Virus genome (UHGV): UHGV-2011979
Length of the DNA: 5,527 nt
Origin: a virus
Strand: one strand, 5' to 3'
A program made the translations under genes and the position numbers. Within the stretch, counting starts at the first letter, position 1. Each line of letters starts with the position of its first letter. The notes beneath the pieces were generated by a model. It ran no database searches and was not told the DNA's origin. It was given only the letters and a program-made list of their open reading frames with translations. Below are positions 1-5,527 of the stretch, in pieces.

Positions 1-782
1 TCTATTGTTTCTACTTTAATAGGAGTTTTGTTGTAGTACTTTGTTTGTTTCTCTTCCTTTATGATTCGGAGGGCTTCGCGTTCTTGATCTGTCCATATTT
101 TTTGTTTGTAGTATGTTGGTAGTGCGACTTTTATTCCTGATCCTGTTCTGTATGTTTCTTCCGTGAATCTATCTTGATATTTATGCCTGTTGAGTGTGTT
201 TTTGTTTATGTAACCTATTCCGATCCTTTTTGAAGTGAATATCTTTCCGTTGAATTCGGGATTGTCTTCGTCTCTTTTCGTTATGTATTTTATGATGTAG
301 TTTATTGTTCTTTCATTCACTTCGTACCCGAAGAATATCCAGCCGTACCCCCATTCTTTCTCGAATTGTTCTTCTGTTAATTCTGTCCATATAATGCCGT
401 GTAGATGTATTCTTTTGGTGTTATCATGTCCTAATTCTGTGATTAACCAGTGTTTGAGTGGCTTCTTGTATTTTTTCCACCATCGTTTTCTGAATAGGCT
501 GATTGCTTTTTGAGGCGCTTTGTTTGGTTCTTTTTCGTCATATTCCAGTTTTTTTAAGCTCTCTTCGGAGAATGTCAGTGTCGCAAATATAATGTTTTTT
601 GGATTCGATTTTATTTCTTCCATTAATCTTACTCTCCATTCATTTGCTTTTGCGTGTCTGCATTCTTCGCAGTGTCCGCATGGAATTTGAATCCATCTTA
701 GGCGATAATCCTTAATTCTTTTGCTGTTTTCATTCGATTTGGCGTATTTGGGATTCTCAATGATACTCGGATATAGACACAT
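1..782 (-). CDS. VP4: Rolling-circle replication initiation protein (Microviridae VP4/gpA-like HUH endonuclease). Start codon at 782..780; the 3' end is truncated by the window edge, leaving 260 aa visible.
   Basis: I translated the minus strand from the ATG at 782 by hand. The frame stays open to position 1; the track omits it because it never reaches a stop. The product begins MCLYPSIIENPKY...IPCGHCEECRHAKANEW...NIIFATLTFSEE...TKRIHLHGIIWTE...INYIIKYITKRDED. It carries a CxxC...C zinc-finger-like cluster at aa 35-41 (nt 680..660). RCR motif I FATLTF is at aa 66-71 (nt 587..570). The HUH motif HLHGII is at aa 126-131 (nt 407..390), and I confirmed it as CAT CTA CAC GGC ATT ATA. The catalytic motif III YIIKYITK (YxxKYxxK, two tyrosines) is at aa 162-169 (nt 299..276). 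The N-terminal CxxP...NP pattern and CG(H/K)CxxC are typical of gokushovirus-type VP4 proteins. Confidence 0.9.
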   Translation of the reverse strand, partial: MCLYPSIIENPKYAKSNENSKRIKDYRLRWIQIPCGHCEECRHAKANEWRVRLMEEIKSNPKNIIFATLTFSEESLKKLEYDEKEPNKAPQKAISLFRKRWWKKYKKPLKHWLITELGHDNTKRIHLHGIIWTELTEEQFEKEWGYGWIFFGYEVNERTINYIIKYITKRDEDNPEFNGKIFTSKRIGIGYINKNTLNRHKYQDRFTEETYRTGSGIKVALPTYYKQKIWTDQEREALRIIKEEKQTKYYNKTPIKVETI

Positions 783-823: not shown

Positions 824-2032
824 TTACCATTTTGTTGTTACAGTTTTATCTACTCCTTTGAATTGCATTTCCGGATCGAAATGCTGTGTTACTGTCGTCG
901 AATTCTTGGGGGGTGTTTCGCTCATCCTTTTTTCCGTATATTCTCTGATCAGTTTTCCTGTTTTTCCTCCGATCGTTAGATTTCCTACTACTTGTGCTAA
1001 TTTGATGATCGTATTTGCAATCTCGGTCCAGTATTGAAGCTCTCGCAGTTCTGCGGTTGCCTCTTCGGTTCTCTTTTTCACTTCGAGCATCTTTGCTTCT
1101 GCTTTCTGAGTTTCGCCTGCTGCATAATAATACGCTGCCTGGGCCATTCCGCTACATGCGTCTGCGTTTATTTTTTTGATTTCTGCCGATAGTTTTTTGT
1201 CTGCGTATATGCTTTCTAAGGTTTTGATCGCCGCCGTTCCCTCGAGGATCTGTTTTTCGGCTGCCATCATATCGCCCTGGAATGATTCTTCTCCGAATAC
1301 AATTTTGCCGAACTTGTCATCCTCTATTTCGAAGTATTTAGGTATTTCAACTTCCTTGCCGTCGATTGTTGTTTTTTCTGTTGGTTGCCATTTTACCATC
1401 TGATCCCATAGCTGGTTTGCTGTGTTGATGAAGCTTGTCCATCCTTTAAACATTTCTTGCTTTACTTCCCATAGCCTTTTATCGATTATCGATTGGGTTT
1501 CCTCTTTGTTTTTACCTGCTTCTGCTTTGAGTGCGTCTGCTTGGGTATTGAGTAGATTGATTTCTGCTTCGTTCTTTCGCTCGCTCATCCGCACCTGTCG
1601 TAGCGACATCAATGCTTGCAGTTGTGCATTAGGATCGGCTGCTGATCCTGCGCCGGCAGCACCCGTTGCCCCCATGGGGGCACCTGTCGTCGATCCGGCC
1701 CCCCCACCGCTGGCCCCGCCTCCACCATACATTAGGCCTGGTGACAATCCTGCTGCATCCATTTGTGCGACTTTGTTAGCGTAACTTTGGTCTTGATAGG
1801 TTCTGTTGTATAATACTTGCTGCCTTTCGAACGCATTCTCTGCTGCCATTTCTCCGTATTTGTAGTTTATTCGAGCCGCGTTCTCTGCCATCTCTTTCTG
1901 CTGCCTCATCTGTCTCCTTCTGCCTATGCCTAACATATTAAGAATTCCCGAGGCGCCGCCAATGATTCCCGAGGCACCACTTGTGAGATCCTCTCCTGTT
2001 TGGAGTAATTTTAATAGTTTTTCAAAGTTCAT
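824..2032 (-). CDS. VP2: Minor capsid / DNA pilot protein (Microviridae VP2, phiX174 H-like), 402 aa.
   Basis: ORF from the track. The N-terminus is Gly/Ala/Ile-rich and hydrophobic (TSGASGIIGGASGILNMLGIG), and is encoded by a 13-nt direct repeat attcccgaggcRcc at 1944..1956 and 1965..1977. A basic patch RRRQMRQQK follows. Aa ~97-133 (nt ~1634..1744) form an extreme Gly/Ala/Ser/Thr low-complexity linker (GGGGASGGGAGSTTGAPMGATGAAGAGSAADP). Aa ~135-200 (EAEINLLNTQADALKAEAGKNKEETQSIIDKRLWEVKQEM) form a long predicted coiled coil. This architecture matches pilot proteins that form a coiled-coil DNA conduit. The gene lies between capsid and Rep, as VP2 does in gokusho/alpaviruses. Confidence 0.7.
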   Translation of the reverse strand: MNFEKLLKLLQTGEDLTSGASGIIGGASGILNMLGIGRRRQMRQQKEMAENAARINYKYGEMAAENAFERQQVLYNRTYQDQSYANKVAQMDAAGLSPGLMYGGGGASGGGAGSTTGAPMGATGAAGAGSAADPNAQLQALMSLRQVRMSERKNEAEINLLNTQADALKAEAGKNKEETQSIIDKRLWEVKQEMFKGWTSFINTANQLWDQMVKWQPTEKTTIDGKEVEIPKYFEIEDDKFGKIVFGEESFQGDMMAAEKQILEGTAAIKTLESIYADKKLSAEIKKINADACSGMAQAAYYYAAGETQKAEAKMLEVKKRTEEATAELRELQYWTEIANTIIKLAQVVGNLTIGGKTGKLIREYTEKRMSETPPKNSTTVTQHFDPEMQFKGVDKTVTTKW

Positions 2033-2186: not shown

Positions 2187-2510
2187 TTAGCTCTTTTCGG
2201 GATCGGTTTTTACTCCTGTCCCGAAATCTTTCACGGCTTCGGTTTCCCCCTTGCTTTTTGCGACTTGGTTTGCTGTGCTTTGATTGATTTTATCTATTGC
2301 GTCTATCGCTACTTCGAATCGATCTGTCCTTATGTCGAATTCGGGTTGTACTCCATCTTTCTTTTCCGTGTAGATTGTTGGAAATACTCCATCCTCCATG
2401 TCATTGGATTCCCCATTGATTATTTTCCTCAGTTTTACCTCTCTTGGTTCTGCTTGGTATGTGAGGTTGGGATTGTTGATACATCCTTTTCTATTTCTTG
2501 CTGTTTTCAT
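2187..2510 (-). CDS. Hypothetical small protein (107 aa) between VP1 and VP2, with a basic N-terminus and an acidic body. It may be an internal scaffolding (VP3-like) or DNA-associated protein.
   Basis: ORF from the track. Its ATG (2510..2508) lies 4 nt downstream of the VP1 stop (2517..2515). It is on the same strand and in the same compact operon. The N-terminus MKTARNRKGCINNP is Lys/Arg-rich, and the remainder is Asp/Glu-rich (EDGVFPTIYTEKKDGVQPEFDIRTDRFEVAIDAIDK...). I recognise no motif. Confidence 0.5.
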   Translation of the reverse strand: MKTARNRKGCINNPNLTYQAEPREVKLRKIINGESNDMEDGVFPTIYTEKKDGVQPEFDIRTDRFEVAIDAIDKINQSTANQVAKSKGETEAVKDFGTGVKTDPEKS

Positions 2511-2514
2511 GGTG

Positions 2515-4560
2515 TTATAAATTTGGAATTTGTTTTGCTGACATTACTCGGCGCGCTGTTACATCGAACGCCACTTGGACCCAGAAGTTTTGCGAGCTTA
2601 GTCTCGACTCTGCGAATATATTGTTATATATTGTCGGATCGATGTACGTCGACGGGTTAGAAATTGTTCCATTTGTACTTTCTTCGTATACCCTGTTCAA
2701 GCACATGAACGCTAAAGGCATTCCCGCGGCAAATTCGCCGTATGTTTCGTTTACGTCTGTTGTGTATTCGATCCACGACGGTTGTTTTCCTAATGACTGG
2801 TATACGTGTTGGTAGTTTTCGGTAGTTTCCGTACTCCATGCGGCTGCTTCTTCTGCTATTAGTTCTTGGAATCCAATTGCGTCTAATGTTGGCTTATGGA
2901 AGTCATCCATAGTCTCTAATCTTGTCCACCATTTGTTGCCTTGACTATAATCTATTCGAGGTGTAATCGACCCTAAAGCCATGATCATACTTGGTTCTGT
3001 GCATTTGATTTTCAAGCCCCTTCCGGATTTATACATGGTTGCCACTCCTCGTCCGGCAAGTGTTCCCAGTGGCTCATCGTCTGTTGCTGAATTTGATACA
3101 ATCTCATCGAATGCGATTTCGCTTTGCATTCCGCCGCAGAATATAGGAGATTCGGGTAGTGTTGCGCTTCTGATTCCGTATGTTGCTTCTCTCCATGCTT
3201 GGTAGGTACCGTCTGTAATGGCTACGCGGTTTAGCATGTTGAATATTTTTTTTTGGAGAATTAGAGCGTCCATAGTAAGTTTTCCGTCGCTTACGTCTAC
3301 CGCTGTAATTGCGTTGATTCCCCCCGTTGTCCCGTCGATCCATTCGGTGTTGAGCCAATTGTTGAATCTGTCGCTAAGGTATGTTTTTACTGCTAATCCC
3401 GCTTGTGAGAACCACGATAATGAACTGGTATATGTTTTCTTGCGGTCGTAGCTTGGTAGGTCTAAGGGTCCCGTTGCAGCTCCGTATGGCAGGGTTCCAT
3501 GGTCTACTATGTATGCCGAGGTGCTCGGTGCCGCCAGGATTTTGGTCCGTTCATCGTCGATGTTTTTTAATGGGAATGCTGTTAGTTTGATTTTTTGGTT
3601 GTCCGGCATTGTTACCGGGTTTCTTCCGCTTGTGCTTATTTTGTATGCAAGTTTGATGGCTTTTTTGATTTTGTACATGTAAATGTTGGTTGCCTTTCTC
3701 GGGTTATTTGGTTCCCTGAGTCCCGGCGCATCCGGATCTGTTCGTTCGAATACAAAAGTGTCTCCGAGTTTTGTCAGGCCGTTGCTCTCTATTGTTGGTG
3801 TGTACGGGTTATTTGTCATGAGTTGTATCTCATTGACTTCTTCGGGTGAGATTTTTTCCTCGAATTCCAGCTTGATGTACTGCGGTTTTTCATCTGTTGG
3901 CGTAACATTGTATTGCTCGCCTGAGTTGGTGAGCCATGTCTTGGCCCAGTTATACCCGTCTCCTACCTGGATTTTTTTCCAAATACGGTCTATTCCGGTG
4001 ATTACATATGCGTTTTCTTCTTGTTTGTTGGCGTAGTAGTTTTTGAATATATCCCAGTATGCCAGATTGAACATCGCGGGAAATCTTCGGAGGTATTGAT
4101 TAACCTTAGAGTGTCCGAATCCCTTTATTCCTATGTACGCCAGTAGCGAGCTTGGATTAACTTGCCCCCTATTGGTATCTAATTCATAGATTGATGTGTT
4201 AGCACTGTATGCTTCAAATTGTGGTAGTAATACTTTGCTCATATTCAACCCTACTCCCAAGGCATTATTATGCAATGCTGCTATGTAGAGCCTGATCGGA
4301 ATTACGAACACGTCGATTTGGTGTTTGAAGCTTCCGAATACAGGTCCGGTTGTTGGCAAAGTCTTTACTTTTGTCGTGATGTCAATGTAGAATGTTGTTC
4401 CATCCAAACCTATTTGGCACCAATAGGGAACGATTGTTCCGCATGCTTGTGATGTTCGGATTATCTTCCCCACGTTGTGCGATGATCTGCCGAAATTAGG
4501 CAGATATACCTCCATTTTGCTCTCGCTTCGGAGTCTGTCTCCTCCTAATGTTTTTTTCAT
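2515..4560 (-). CDS. VP1: Major capsid protein (Microviridae VP1, phiX174 F-like jelly-roll), 681 aa.
   Basis: This is the longest ORF in the window and it is on the minus strand. It sits immediately upstream of the VP2-like and Rep genes, matching the VP1-VP2-VP4 order of gokusho/alpaviruses. Its size falls in the 600-780 aa range of Alpavirinae-type VP1 proteins. The call rests on size and synteny; I verified no catalytic motif. Confidence 0.75.
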   Translation of the reverse strand: MKKTLGGDRLRSESKMEVYLPNFGRSSHNVGKIIRTSQACGTIVPYWCQIGLDGTTFYIDITTKVKTLPTTGPVFGSFKHQIDVFVIPIRLYIAALHNNALGVGLNMSKVLLPQFEAYSANTSIYELDTNRGQVNPSSLLAYIGIKGFGHSKVNQYLRRFPAMFNLAYWDIFKNYYANKQEENAYVITGIDRIWKKIQVGDGYNWAKTWLTNSGEQYNVTPTDEKPQYIKLEFEEKISPEEVNEIQLMTNNPYTPTIESNGLTKLGDTFVFERTDPDAPGLREPNNPRKATNIYMYKIKKAIKLAYKISTSGRNPVTMPDNQKIKLTAFPLKNIDDERTKILAAPSTSAYIVDHGTLPYGAATGPLDLPSYDRKKTYTSSLSWFSQAGLAVKTYLSDRFNNWLNTEWIDGTTGGINAITAVDVSDGKLTMDALILQKKIFNMLNRVAITDGTYQAWREATYGIRSATLPESPIFCGGMQSEIAFDEIVSNSATDDEPLGTLAGRGVATMYKSGRGLKIKCTEPSMIMALGSITPRIDYSQGNKWWTRLETMDDFHKPTLDAIGFQELIAEEAAAWSTETTENYQHVYQSLGKQPSWIEYTTDVNETYGEFAAGMPLAFMCLNRVYEESTNGTISNPSTYIDPTIYNNIFAESRLSSQNFWVQVAFDVTARRVMSAKQIPNL

Positions 4561-4563
4561 GGC

Positions 4564-4869
4564 TTATTCTTTTTGAGTGTTTATCATTTGGTTATTTACG
4601 TGTGCGATGAATATAAATGCCGCGGTTAAGATGTCATCCCACGTTTTTTCAGATAGATGTTTTTCGGCGTCCTCTTTGGTGTCGAATTCTTTCCCGTTTA
4701 CGAGTGCCCCGCACGTTGTGATCACCCATTTGTTTTTTTTGTTGCGAATTAGTACGAACGGCCCCTCTTTTGATACCGCTCTTTCTTCGATTTCGAGGTT
4801 TACGTTTTTGATTTCCTCTTCTTTTTTTTGGCTTTCAGCGAGTAGCTGATTTCTGAATTTCTTGTCCAT
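4564..4869 (-). CDS. Hypothetical protein (101 aa) immediately upstream of VP1, with a charged coiled-coil-like N-terminus and a short hydrophobic segment near the C-terminus.
   Basis: ORF from the track. Its stop TAA (4566..4564) is 3 nt from the VP1 ATG, and its ATG (4869..4867) is 1 nt after the stop of the 56-aa membrane ORF. The N-terminus NQLLAESQKKEEEIKNVNLEIEERAVSKE is heptad-like. The C-terminal segment WDDILTAAFIFIAHV is hydrophobic. Confidence 0.5.
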   Translation of the reverse strand: MDKKFRNQLLAESQKKEEEIKNVNLEIEERAVSKEGPFVLIRNKKNKWVITTCGALVNGKEFDTKEDAEKHLSEKTWDDILTAAFIFIAHVNNQMINTQKE

Positions 4870-4870
4870 G

Positions 4871-5041
4871 TTACTTGATTTTTGTTGATGTTGATACTTC
4901 GATTGTGTCGACTTTAATTCCGCTTGCTTTGAGGTAATGCTTGTGAGTGCAACCCTGCTCTATGATCACGGCAGCTGCCGCGCCGATCGCAGCCGCTATT
5001 ACCGCGATCCATTTTACGATCTTCTTTACTTTTTCATTCAT
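4871..5041 (-). CDS. Small single-pass membrane protein (56 aa, N-terminal transmembrane helix). It is not in the supplied ORF track, apparently because it is under 60 aa. Candidate lysis (amurin/holin-like) or membrane-targeting protein.
   Basis: I hand-translated the reverse complement of 5041..4871 and obtained MNEKVKKIVKWIAVIAAAIGAAAAVIIEQGCTHKHYLKASGIKVDTIEVSTSTKIK followed by TAA. The layout is a Lys-rich N-terminus, then a 17-residue uninterrupted hydrophobic helix (WIAVIAAAIGAAAAVII), then a polar C-terminal tail. The start codon (5041..5039) overlaps the TGA of the upstream 118-aa ORF (5040..5038) in an ATGA arrangement. The stop (4873..4871) is 1 nt from the ATG of the next gene. 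Confidence 0.55.
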   Translation of the reverse strand: MNEKVKKIVKWIAVIAAAIGAAAAVIIEQGCTHKHYLKASGIKVDTIEVSTSTKIK

Positions 5042-5394
5042 AGGTTTAGTGATAATTGAATGTTTGTGTTTTTGATTATTACTATTCTTCTGATAGTGGG
5101 TTCGTACATTTGTTTGCTTTCGTTGTATAACCAGTCAGTTATTTCGTAGAAGCTTATGCCGGTTCTTTGCGCTTTTTGAGTGATTACGTATTCTTTGTCG
5201 TATACCTCTCCGTCTTCTGTTACGTAATATGTTCCTTCGTATTTGAAGTCTCGTCGAGATACCCTTTCGGCGCCGATCAGCTTTATTAGGTTGCTTGATC
5301 TGTCTCCGATGTCTCCTCTGTCTCTGTTGGTATCAGTATTTTGTTTCGTATTAATATGTTTTCCAACCTTTTGATTGCAATCTCTGTTTGCCAT
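5038..5394 (-). CDS. Hypothetical protein (118 aa as drawn from the first ATG; the true start may be further downstream). It overlaps the 62-aa ORF in the -1 frame.
   Basis: ORF from the track. The C-terminal ~80 aa (DFKYEGTYYVTEDGEVYDKEYVITQKAQRTGISFYEITDWLYNESKQMYEPTIRRIVIIKNTNIQ) read like a folded, beta-rich domain. The N-terminal 36 aa (MANRDCNQKVGKHINTKQNTDTNRDRGDIGDRSSNL) are polar, low-complexity, and wholly overlapped by the 62-aa ORF. The stop codon is translationally coupled by ATGA to the 56-aa membrane ORF. Confidence 0.5.
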   Translation of the reverse strand: MANRDCNQKVGKHINTKQNTDTNRDRGDIGDRSSNLIKLIGAERVSRRDFKYEGTYYVTEDGEVYDKEYVITQKAQRTGISFYEITDWLYNESKQMYEPTIRRIVIIKNTNIQLSLNL

Positions 5395-5474
5395 AGTTCA
5401 CGAGTTAGTTGTGTTTTATTTATGATCAAGTCTGCATATCCTTTGCATATTTCATTTTTTTCTCTTTCCGTCAT
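5286..5474 (-). CDS. Hypothetical small protein (62 aa), predicted helical/coiled-coil, and the first gene of the minus-strand cluster.
   Basis: ORF from the track, with ATG at 5474..5472 after an A-rich leader (caaacaatcaaaaaatATG). The sequence TQLTRELWQTEIAIKRLENILIRNKIL has a heptad-like hydrophobic periodicity, and the C-terminal tail is acidic (PTETEETSETDQAT). The last 109 nt overlap the 118-aa ORF in another frame. Confidence 0.4.
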   Translation of the reverse strand: MTEREKNEICKGYADLIINKTQLTRELWQTEIAIKRLENILIRNKILIPTETEETSETDQAT

Positions 5475-5527
5475 ATTTTTTGATTGTTTGCCAATATTTT
5501 ACTGCGTTGACATATTCTCTGTATTGT

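Follow-up and report, generated by a model that had tools for sequence, protein, structure and literature searches.

The window analysed here is the whole of UHGV virus genome UHGV-2011979. This genome of a human-gut microvirus is circular and complete, measures 5,527 nt and has every gene on the minus strand. We examined the fourth gene of this genome, an open reading frame (ORF) of 56 codons plus a TAA stop (5041..4871, minus strand) that starts with ATG and encodes the product MNEKVKKIVKWIAVIAAAIGAAAAVIIEQGCTHKHYLKASGIKVDTIEVSTSTKIK. Its neighbours are a gene for a 118-aa protein (upstream) and a gene for a 101-aa protein (downstream). The plus strand reads 'tcat' at 5038-5041, corresponding to ATGA in coding orientation; the start codon of the 56-codon ORF (ATG, 5041-5039) is thereby superimposed on the TGA stop (5040-5038) of the 118-aa gene. 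This ATGA overlap (5038..5041, minus) possibly mediates termination-reinitiation coupling to the 118-aa gene. At the other end (4867..4873, minus), a single spacer base, c at position 4870, separates the TAA stop (4873-4871) from the ATG (4869-4867) of the 101-aa gene. A first-pass annotation of this DNA had described the start overlapping the upstream stop as well as the stop 1 nt from the next start, and had placed the ORF within a polycistron. The sequence confirms both junctions, and the ORF is part of the gap-free order Rep, 62-aa protein, 118-aa protein, 56-aa protein, 101-aa protein, major capsid protein (MCP) and 107-aa protein.

Related loci were retrieved from IMG/VR via the neighbouring 101-aa gene, and 28 of the 30 loci obtained included sufficient upstream DNA. 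In each of these 28 relatives, the ORF was intact, comprised 56 codons and was bordered by identical junctions. The ATGA overlap was kept in 28/28, and so was the stop-c-ATG layout, although the stop codon itself was TAA, TGA or TAG. Variable sites were distributed over codon positions 1/2/3 as 17/6/38 of 56. The NG86 estimates for nonsynonymous (dN) and synonymous (dS) substitutions were 0.042 and 0.47, respectively, resulting in a dN/dS of 0.09. The values for the neighbouring 101-aa gene (0.23) and 118-aa gene (0.49) were both higher. Since dS was normal across all sub-regions of the ORF, the conservation acts on the protein, with no hidden overlapping element behind it. The first-pass annotation had named the lack of a conserved ORF at this position in related genomes, and of purifying selection in its frame, as results that would speak against it; the relatives displayed both the ORF and the selection.

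A search of 5.8 billion proteins returned 185 clusters at 73-98% identity, nearly all of exactly 56 aa and located on contigs of ~5.55 kb. A single nr entry was among them, 'MAG TPA: hypothetical protein [Microviridae sp.]'. The exact target protein occurred in 158 blocks of public assemblies, mostly human-gut contigs of 5-10 kb, and had been gene-called each time. A tblastn search of GenBank phages with the 56-aa protein gave nothing. The earlier label 'unannotated' holds only locally, as the gene has been called in hundreds of public assemblies, each time under the name 'hypothetical'. Hundreds of public microvirus genomes contain a conserved gene that small-ORF filters conceal. A spurious ORF or a non-coding spacer would be suggested by the small size and the absent database annotation, and by nothing more. 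Against it stand the dN/dS of 0.09, the dominance of third-position changes, the start, stop and length kept in 28/28 relatives, and a family of 2,082 clusters (see below). The conservation among relatives together with the substitution pattern refutes this reading, to which we assign practically no probability. That the 56-codon ORF represents a genuine, strongly conserved gene is well supported by these sequence comparisons.

Four regions can be distinguished in the protein. The n-region (residues 1-10, MNEKVKKIVK; 5012..5041, minus) has a net charge of +3 and is predicted to reside on the cytoplasmic side. Its charged residues, K4, K6, K7 and K10 versus E3, are near-invariant with low column entropies (dN/dS 0.008), and the four Lys among the first ten residues account for the lysine-rich N-terminus reported at first pass. 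The h-region (residues 11-27, WIAVIAAAIGAAAAVII; 4961..5011, minus) is an Ala/Gly-rich hydrophobic helix with a dN/dS of 0.047 and constitutes a putative signal peptide or signal anchor. When all coding-strand ORFs of at least 25 aa in the genome were compared, its KD17 of 2.59 was followed by a next best value of 1.44, and residues 11-27 formed the sole strongly hydrophobic uncharged stretch, in agreement with the 17-residue hydrophobic segment noted previously. Directly behind it lies the lipobox-position motif E-Q-G-C (residues 28-31; 4949..4960, minus; Cys31 codon at 4951-4949), whose Glu at -3 is atypical. No nonsynonymous change was seen in this segment (dN = 0 with dS 0.53). The tail (residues 32-56, THKHYLKASGIKVDTIEVSTSTKIK; 4874..4948, minus) is cationic (net +3 from Cys31) and predicted to lie outside the cytoplasmic membrane. 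It is the most variable part of the protein (dN/dS 0.19), contains the family motifs [YF]-L-K-A-x-G and [VI]-D-[ST]-[IV]-x-[VI], and includes D45, which is invariant across subfamilies. The AlphaFold2 (AF2) model comprised a helix from residues 3 to 29 at a pLDDT of ~85, while the tail remained below 50 and had no autonomous fold.

Bacteroidota lipoproteins are sent to the cell surface by an acidic lipoprotein export signal (LES) directly after the Cys (PMC12889592). Positions +2 to +6 after Cys31 of the target read THKHY and contain no acidic residue, so that this surface-lipoprotein signal is absent, and 227 of the 231 family members likewise have neither Asp nor Glu at these positions. The predicted topology is the same for a lipidated and for an anchored protein, with the N-terminus inside and the 25-residue tail tethered on the periplasmic side.

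The hallmark of the target lineage is the invariant E-Q-G-C directly behind the helix, and the gene was present in 41/41 lineage genomes. In a wider survey of relatives with 36-57% MCP identity, the same slot, i.e., directly upstream of the 101-aa-gene homolog that itself directly precedes the MCP gene, was occupied by genes for 49-75-aa proteins, in which a basic N-terminus precedes a hydrophobic core, a Cys and a short cationic tail. These relatives carry canonical lipoboxes (LTSC, FTSC, TTSC, TTGC, ITAC, LLAC, GVSC, IGGC, TIGC and VQSC) and their tails contain the motifs phi-phi-K-G and [VI]-D-[ST]-x-phi-x-phi, as does that of the target. In the nearest relative with a canonical box, FTSC is followed by SASYMLHKKGLHTDSVEVWIK, as compared with EQGC followed by THKHYLKASGIKVDTIEVSTS in the target. 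All but one of the 23 family ORFs detected with a hidden Markov model (HMM) start 420-890 nt upstream of the MCP gene; the outlier, at 2,128 nt, is located on L097, a contig longer than one genome length. Two additional family ORFs called by eye, on L116 and L122, start 665 and 643 nt upstream, respectively. In the family-wide alignment, the Cys is the sole invariant column. Between the target lineage and a large sister subfamily, I12, C31 and D45 are invariant and Q29 is nearly so, and both groups share the motifs Q-[GS]-C and [VI]-D-[ST]. The sister subfamily has the box [VIM]-Q-[SG]-C, including VQGC, which differs from EQGC by one residue.

Profile searches connected the target lineage to the canonical relatives. 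A search of 1.84 billion (1.84e9) representatives with the lineage profile yielded one useful match, the bridging 62-aa protein P0134 (E 8.6e-4), which combines a target-like N-terminus with a canonical MTSC box; the remaining matches were mostly fragments of the same lineage. Alignment of the lineage with the canonical relatives by hhalign gave a probability of 80.8% (E 1.3e-5) with the Cys residues in register (with TSC). The whole-family profile retrieved 2,082 clusters, all on contigs of 5.5-7.5 kb, all labelled 'hypothetical' and none with a Pfam domain. Neither the target nor the wider family had a meaningful match among PHROGs and Pfam (for the family, Pfam at E <= 10), and we found no description of a microviral lipoprotein or of a lipoprotein among single-gene lysis proteins (Sgl) in the literature. 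The tail profile (positions 36-56) also matched five repeats (LKVNGVCVDTIQVSATHKLKC) of P0132, a Cys-rich protein of 769 aa with Pro/Thr-rich linkers, at E 8e-10. We rejected P0132 as a family member, because a short beta-strand motif of this kind probably resembles the tail by chance.

Its sequence places the target, with good support, in a large family of very small microviral (pro)lipoproteins that had no name before. The family architecture is equally well supported: a short basic N-terminus leads into a hydrophobic signal helix, the Cys occupies the lipobox position, and a cationic unstructured tail of 25-40 residues with a [VI]-D-[ST] strand motif follows. Because the invariant Cys directly follows the helix and most other lineages have canonical lipoboxes, the target helix most likely serves as the h-region in a signal peptide of the lipoprotein type rather than as a mere transmembrane (TM) anchor. 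The single TM helix of the first reading is therefore real as a hydrophobic helix and most likely of a different nature. One anonymous 56-codon ORF has in this way led to a defined family of >2,000 clusters with a clear architecture, a predicted periplasm-side tether and few candidate roles.

For microviruses outside the phiX174 group, the lysis mechanism is undescribed, and only some encode an M15 peptidase (Roux et al. 2012). A wall hydrolase domain was found in 0/8 window proteins (Pfam, PHROG). Hydrolases (M15, DUF5675) occurred in 0/41 lineage genomes and were absent from 25/25 more distant family-positive genomes. The target is the sole membrane-directed small protein on the coding strand. 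Across relatives, the Rep-to-MCP interval represents a hotspot of envelope modules, in which several lineages carry unrelated TM ORFs of 34-60 aa. Such an unrelated small TM ORF was present in 9/26 family-negative versus 1/23 family-positive genomes (Fisher p = 0.012). A prophage of Dysgonomonas, which lacks the family, has a Peptidase_M15_3 gene and, in the slot of the target, a Cys-less TM ORF of 86 aa. A holin-like role had also been proposed for the target; it is unlikely, because the genome has no endolysin as a partner and the only M15-bearing relative has this different, Cys-less ORF in the slot. A scan of viral contigs with the M15 alignment recovered tailed-phage fragments only and no microviruses of the clade.

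As a side observation, L072:2388-2765 and L075:1748-2131 encode a DUF5675/Tlde1 protein (YkuD-fold, L,D-transpeptidase-like; Pfam E 6e-16) between Rep and MCP, and both genomes lack the family. This protein is a peptidoglycan-acting module, unlike the M15 peptidases so far reported for microviruses.

As to function, the single reading we prefer, with due reserve, is that the target may act as a lysis or release effector from the periplasmic side. The best explanation as a whole, which we hold tentatively and rate clearly below an even chance, would be a mini-(pro)lipoprotein precursor whose periplasm-tethered tail serves as an envelope effector of the single-gene-lysis type. According to this scheme, ATGA coupling to the upstream gene would allow translation of small amounts of the target, and the precursor would enter the cytoplasmic membrane in such a way that its N-terminus stays inside. 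For the family as a whole, lipidation by Lgt and cleavage by signal peptidase II, both at the Cys, would give rise to a lipopeptide of ~26-37 aa that, devoid of the acidic surface-export signal, would stay periplasm-facing. In the target lineage, the tail would be tethered on the periplasmic side either by lipidation or via the uncleaved helix. The tethered tail might then inhibit or destabilise the integrity of the wall or the outer membrane from the periplasm. A bolder version, on balance unlikely, is that the family constitutes a new class, 'lipo-amurin', of lipid-anchored (here maybe helix-anchored) cationic peptides of 26-37 residues that, from the periplasm of Bacteroidota, hit extracytoplasmic wall or outer-membrane biogenesis. 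Microviruses are among the most abundant human-gut phages, and a lipo-amurin, if real, would account for host lysis by thousands of hydrolase-less gut microviruses. A lysis effector of this kind would expose a new extracytoplasmic weak point of the Bacteroidota envelope together with a minimal peptide exploiting it.

Several observations weigh against this explanation, the first of which concerns the lipobox. A lipoprotein Cys is expected at residue 15-35 behind an uncharged hydrophobic h-region, and the lipobox rule, including the working criteria for Bacteroides, requires uncharged and mostly non-polar residues at the three positions preceding the Cys (PMC12889592). The target has the basic n-region, the uncharged h-region (11-27) and the Cys at residue 31. 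For the box, we used [LVI][ASTVI][GAS]C or a broader PROSITE-type rule. The Gly at -1 of the target is acceptable, the Gln at -2 passes the broad rule only, and the acidic residue at -3 fails both, whereas 15/19 members from other lineages pass the formal lipobox rule. Among the 103 full-length lineage sequences, EQGC occurs in 101 and the Cys in all 103, and position -3 is Glu in 102/103 and Asp in 1/103, which breaks the rule. This acidic residue renders lipidation of the target uncertain, and we refrain from classing the target itself among the proven lipoproteins. In addition, the n- and h-regions are more tightly constrained than the tail (dN/dS 0.008 and 0.047 versus 0.19), which is unusual for a disposable signal peptide and agrees with a functional, 'stable' signal peptide as well as with a retained anchor helix.

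The same two observations feed a rival reading, which would bear out the single TM helix of the first reading literally for this lineage: the product would be an uncleaved single-pass (N-in, C-out) membrane peptide whose Ala/Gly-rich helix packs on a host membrane enzyme (MraY, MurJ or FtsW-like) or on itself. Such an E-, SglM- or PP7-like amurin would descend from a lipoprotein ancestor that turned into a TM effector. Apart from the Glu or Asp at -3 in 103/103 sequences and the near-invariant helix and N-terminus at normal dS, it is favoured by the small-xxx-small pattern (AAAIGAAAA) of the confidently predicted helix and by the nature of known Sgl, which are TM peptides of 37-91 aa. It is contradicted by Cys31, Gly30 and Gln29, which are still invariant as if the box were in use, by the V-Q-[SG]-C box of the sister subfamily, and by the retained tail motifs of the canonical lipoproteins, which argue for the same exported functional peptide. 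Moreover, the accessory distribution described below speaks against an essential lysis gene. We regard this reading as rather improbable. On the narrower question of the box, the sequences suggest about an even chance that E-Q-G-C is still lipidated in the target lineage; that the target helix is kept as an uncleaved anchor may be put at somewhat under even.

The preferred lysis or release reading also has to accommodate the distribution of the gene. A small membrane ORF was missing altogether from 17 of 26 family-negative, hydrolase-negative relatives, among them bajarodmic virus 724, whose genome is the closest in GenBank. The gene is thus accessory, and lysis in the clade does not universally need such a protein. 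Mutual exclusivity of hydrolase and family was not significant (0 versus 3 genomes, Fisher p = 0.24) in a sample with 3 hydrolase-bearing genomes only. The target has no similarity to Lysis_col, Entericidin, any PHROG, or a known lysis, spanin or exclusion protein. Finally, by our reasoning, a colicin-lysis-type mechanism alone is not obviously enough to open the peptidoglycan for virions of 25-30 nm. The lysis candidacy advanced at first pass thus stands as regards the sole membrane-targeted small protein and the missing hydrolase; it is still a hypothesis, for an accessory gene in a clade where 17/26 family-negative relatives have no small membrane ORF of any kind.

The patchy, accessory distribution among related lineages is typical of exclusion genes and leads to the main rival of the lysis reading, which we judge unlikely. 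The product would be a superinfection-exclusion or receptor-masking lipoprotein, like T5 Llp or Cor of phi80/N15, that binds the periplasmic side of an outer-membrane receptor, e.g., a TonB-dependent transporter. Further infection would be blocked, and progeny would be spared from debris or vesicles. Phages do make small outer-membrane lipoproteins, as the T5- and Cor-type proteins show, and the target product would be similarly periplasm-facing, without a surface-export signal. The tail, as the most variable part (dN/dS 0.19 versus <0.05 elsewhere), behaves as it would if it followed changes in a host surface component, and relatives without a membrane ORF are apparently viable. On the other side, the tightest constraint rests on the N-terminus and the helix instead of the exposed tail, and the mature peptide would have 26 aa only, compared with ~60 aa for Llp. 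Furthermore, no signs of lysogeny were seen in family-bearing lineages, the gene would be costly for a 5.5-kb genome, and similarity to known exclusion proteins is lacking. If receptor masking were true, this would be the first exclusion system described in this group of microviruses and would help in the search for the receptor.

The tight linkage to the conserved 101-aa gene, whose product has a C-terminal hydrophobic helix, would suit a further role as an outer-membrane-disruption component. Such an o-spanin- or disruptin-like protein would finish lysis after another phage function has weakened the wall, and a small periplasm-facing lipoprotein with a cationic tail would match it. We consider this very improbable. 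There is no endolysin in the genome to act after, and no i-spanin-type partner: neither neighbour protein has an N-terminal TM segment, and the 101-aa protein, which lacks one, is also encoded in lipoprotein-less genomes. The tail is not Pro-rich and has no extra Cys residues, whereas Rz1-type proteins are Pro-rich and contain Cys residues for intermolecular disulfides. The M15-bearing Dysgonomonas prophage, moreover, lacks the family.

The 101-aa protein itself is a clade-wide core gene product of gut and environmental lineages, with or without the lipoprotein, including the Dysgonomonas prophage (homologs, e.g., L035:5290-5595, L001:5214-5525 and L133:2723-3040). It has a conserved central T-P-F..G-x-Y-R-[IL]-T-E block and ends in a likewise conserved W-[ND]-x-[IL]-[IV]-Q-V-like hydrophobic helix, with no Pfam/PHROG match. 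It may serve in morphogenesis or perhaps even as a universal lysis factor. The 118-aa protein evolves fast (see dN/dS above) and ends ..QLSLNL. Its positional counterparts in distant relatives (e.g., L068:824-1036, L001:5033-5239 and L078:5212-5466) often end Q-[LK]-x-L-[FW], and the similar motif hints at a conserved C-terminal function.

Among known systems, the colicin lysis proteins come closest to the target in size and chemistry. They are small lipoproteins that cause envelope damage and quasi-lysis (PMC9517006). Like these proteins and the bacteriocin release proteins (BRP), the target is a very small lipoprotein-type precursor, co-translated within or at the end of an operon whose products must exit. 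Colicin lysis proteins have precursors of ~45-55 aa and a mature lipopeptide of <40 aa, and their stable signal peptide adds to the toxicity, which the unusually conserved signal helix of the target would fit. In contrast to the target, they are plasmid-borne in Enterobacteriaceae, act via outer-membrane phospholipase A and need not release particles of 25-30 nm, whereas the target is phage-borne in Bacteroidota and has a non-canonical box. Neither the target nor 15 other family members matched Lysis_col (PF02402) at E <= 10.

By niche, the single-gene lysis proteins come nearest; the target falls into neither group. Like phiX174 E, SglM, SglPP7 and MS2 L, it is a tiny membrane-targeted protein of a minimal, endolysin-less genome, with expression tied to its neighbours and a diverse, lineage-specific sequence. 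It is not known to act on MraY, MurJ or MurA. E and the Sgl proteins are uncleaved TM peptides, and E as well as several Sgl genes are overprinted on other genes; the 56-codon ORF, by contrast, occupies a place of its own in the genome, comes from a lipoprotein family in which the Cys is invariant, and has no homology to them. T5 Llp and Cor (phi80, N15, HK022) resemble the target as small, phage-encoded, periplasm-facing and accessory proteins, namely outer-membrane lipoproteins, that also occur in strictly lytic phages such as T5. They differ in being larger and folded (mature ~60 aa) and in having a known receptor, FhuA, with no sequence similarity, while the tail of the target comprises 25 aa and is predicted to be disordered. 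The o-spanins (lambda Rz1) are likewise small phage outer-membrane lipoproteins with a short mature part, and they act in lysis. They need an i-spanin and an endolysin, neither of which is present here, and their gene order and architecture differ. phiX174 K shares with the target that it is a small (56 aa), non-essential, hydrophobic microvirus accessory protein; in contrast, it is overprinted on A and C, has no lipobox-position Cys, shows no homology and belongs to a phage of Enterobacteria.

The host phylum of the clade is most likely Bacteroidota. A related microvirus (L035:5003-10698) is integrated in a 265-kb Bacteroidales contig of Dysgonomonas macrotermitis DSM 27370 (NZ_FQUC01000005.1). 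The MCP of this prophage is 38% identical, its genes follow the order seen in the window, and both the 101-aa and the 107-aa gene have homologs in it. Its genes are arranged as the 86-aa TM ORF, the 101-aa homolog, Peptidase_M15_3, MCP, a 102-aa protein, VP2, Rep and a last ORF, 70-77 aa long according to the start codon chosen, whose product has a TM segment near its C-terminus. In the window, a Shine-Dalgarno motif preceded 0/8 genes and A-rich leaders preceded 8/8, a known Bacteroidota pattern. No family-bearing genome was found integrated, and the clusters lie on contigs of <=8.2 kb, bar three chimeric joins. The latter (L104, L105 and L160, all longer than one genome) were rejected as prophage or host evidence, because all three look like assembly chimeras. 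L104 (5380-5620) is joined at a poly-G run with a truncated integrase-like ORF, L105 (1-2700) is joined to tailed-phage genes, and L160 (4650-4810) comprises exactly one genome length with an overlap of 48 nt, its GC content jumps from 41% to 51%, and it has a serine recombinase block. An Acinetobacter scaffold was not accepted as host evidence either. This scaffold (L034, NZ_JACWEU010000076.1, 'Acinetobacter lwoffii strain SU1904 scaffold_75', 5,673 bp) is a whole target-lineage genome with an 84% identical MCP and the lipoprotein, most likely a contaminant or free phage DNA. phiHBP1, the only cultured Bacteroides microvirus, does not qualify as a model, as it belongs to a different clade, has M15 and lacks the lipoprotein.

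The remaining genes of the window, all on the minus strand, complete the layout. Gene 1 encodes Rep (285 aa; 782..1 then 5527..5452) and spans the origin. It is followed by gene 2 for the 62-aa protein (5474..5286), gene 3 for the 118-aa protein (5394..5038) and, beyond the target, gene 5 for the 101-aa protein (4869..4564). Gene 6 encodes MCP (681 aa; 4560..2515), with matches to PHROG 514 at 1e-39 and Pfam Phage_F. The MCP identity marks the genome as a microvirus, and MCP anchors the synteny. Genes 7 and 8 encode the 107-aa protein (2510..2187) and the pilot protein VP2 (402 aa; 2032..824). MCP, VP2 and Rep were matched by PHROGs and Pfam; the five small proteins of the genome, including the 118-aa protein, had no match in either. 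Scans for sigma-70 promoters and intrinsic terminators gave matches no better than chance. A local GC peak of 0.53-0.55, compared with ~0.42 genome-wide, was observed at 1501-1950 within the VP2 gene (minus). It corresponds to a Gly/Ala-rich segment of VP2, and chimeric assembly joins fall in the same region, with 2/3 of them located inside the Gly-rich, GC-rich part of VP2.

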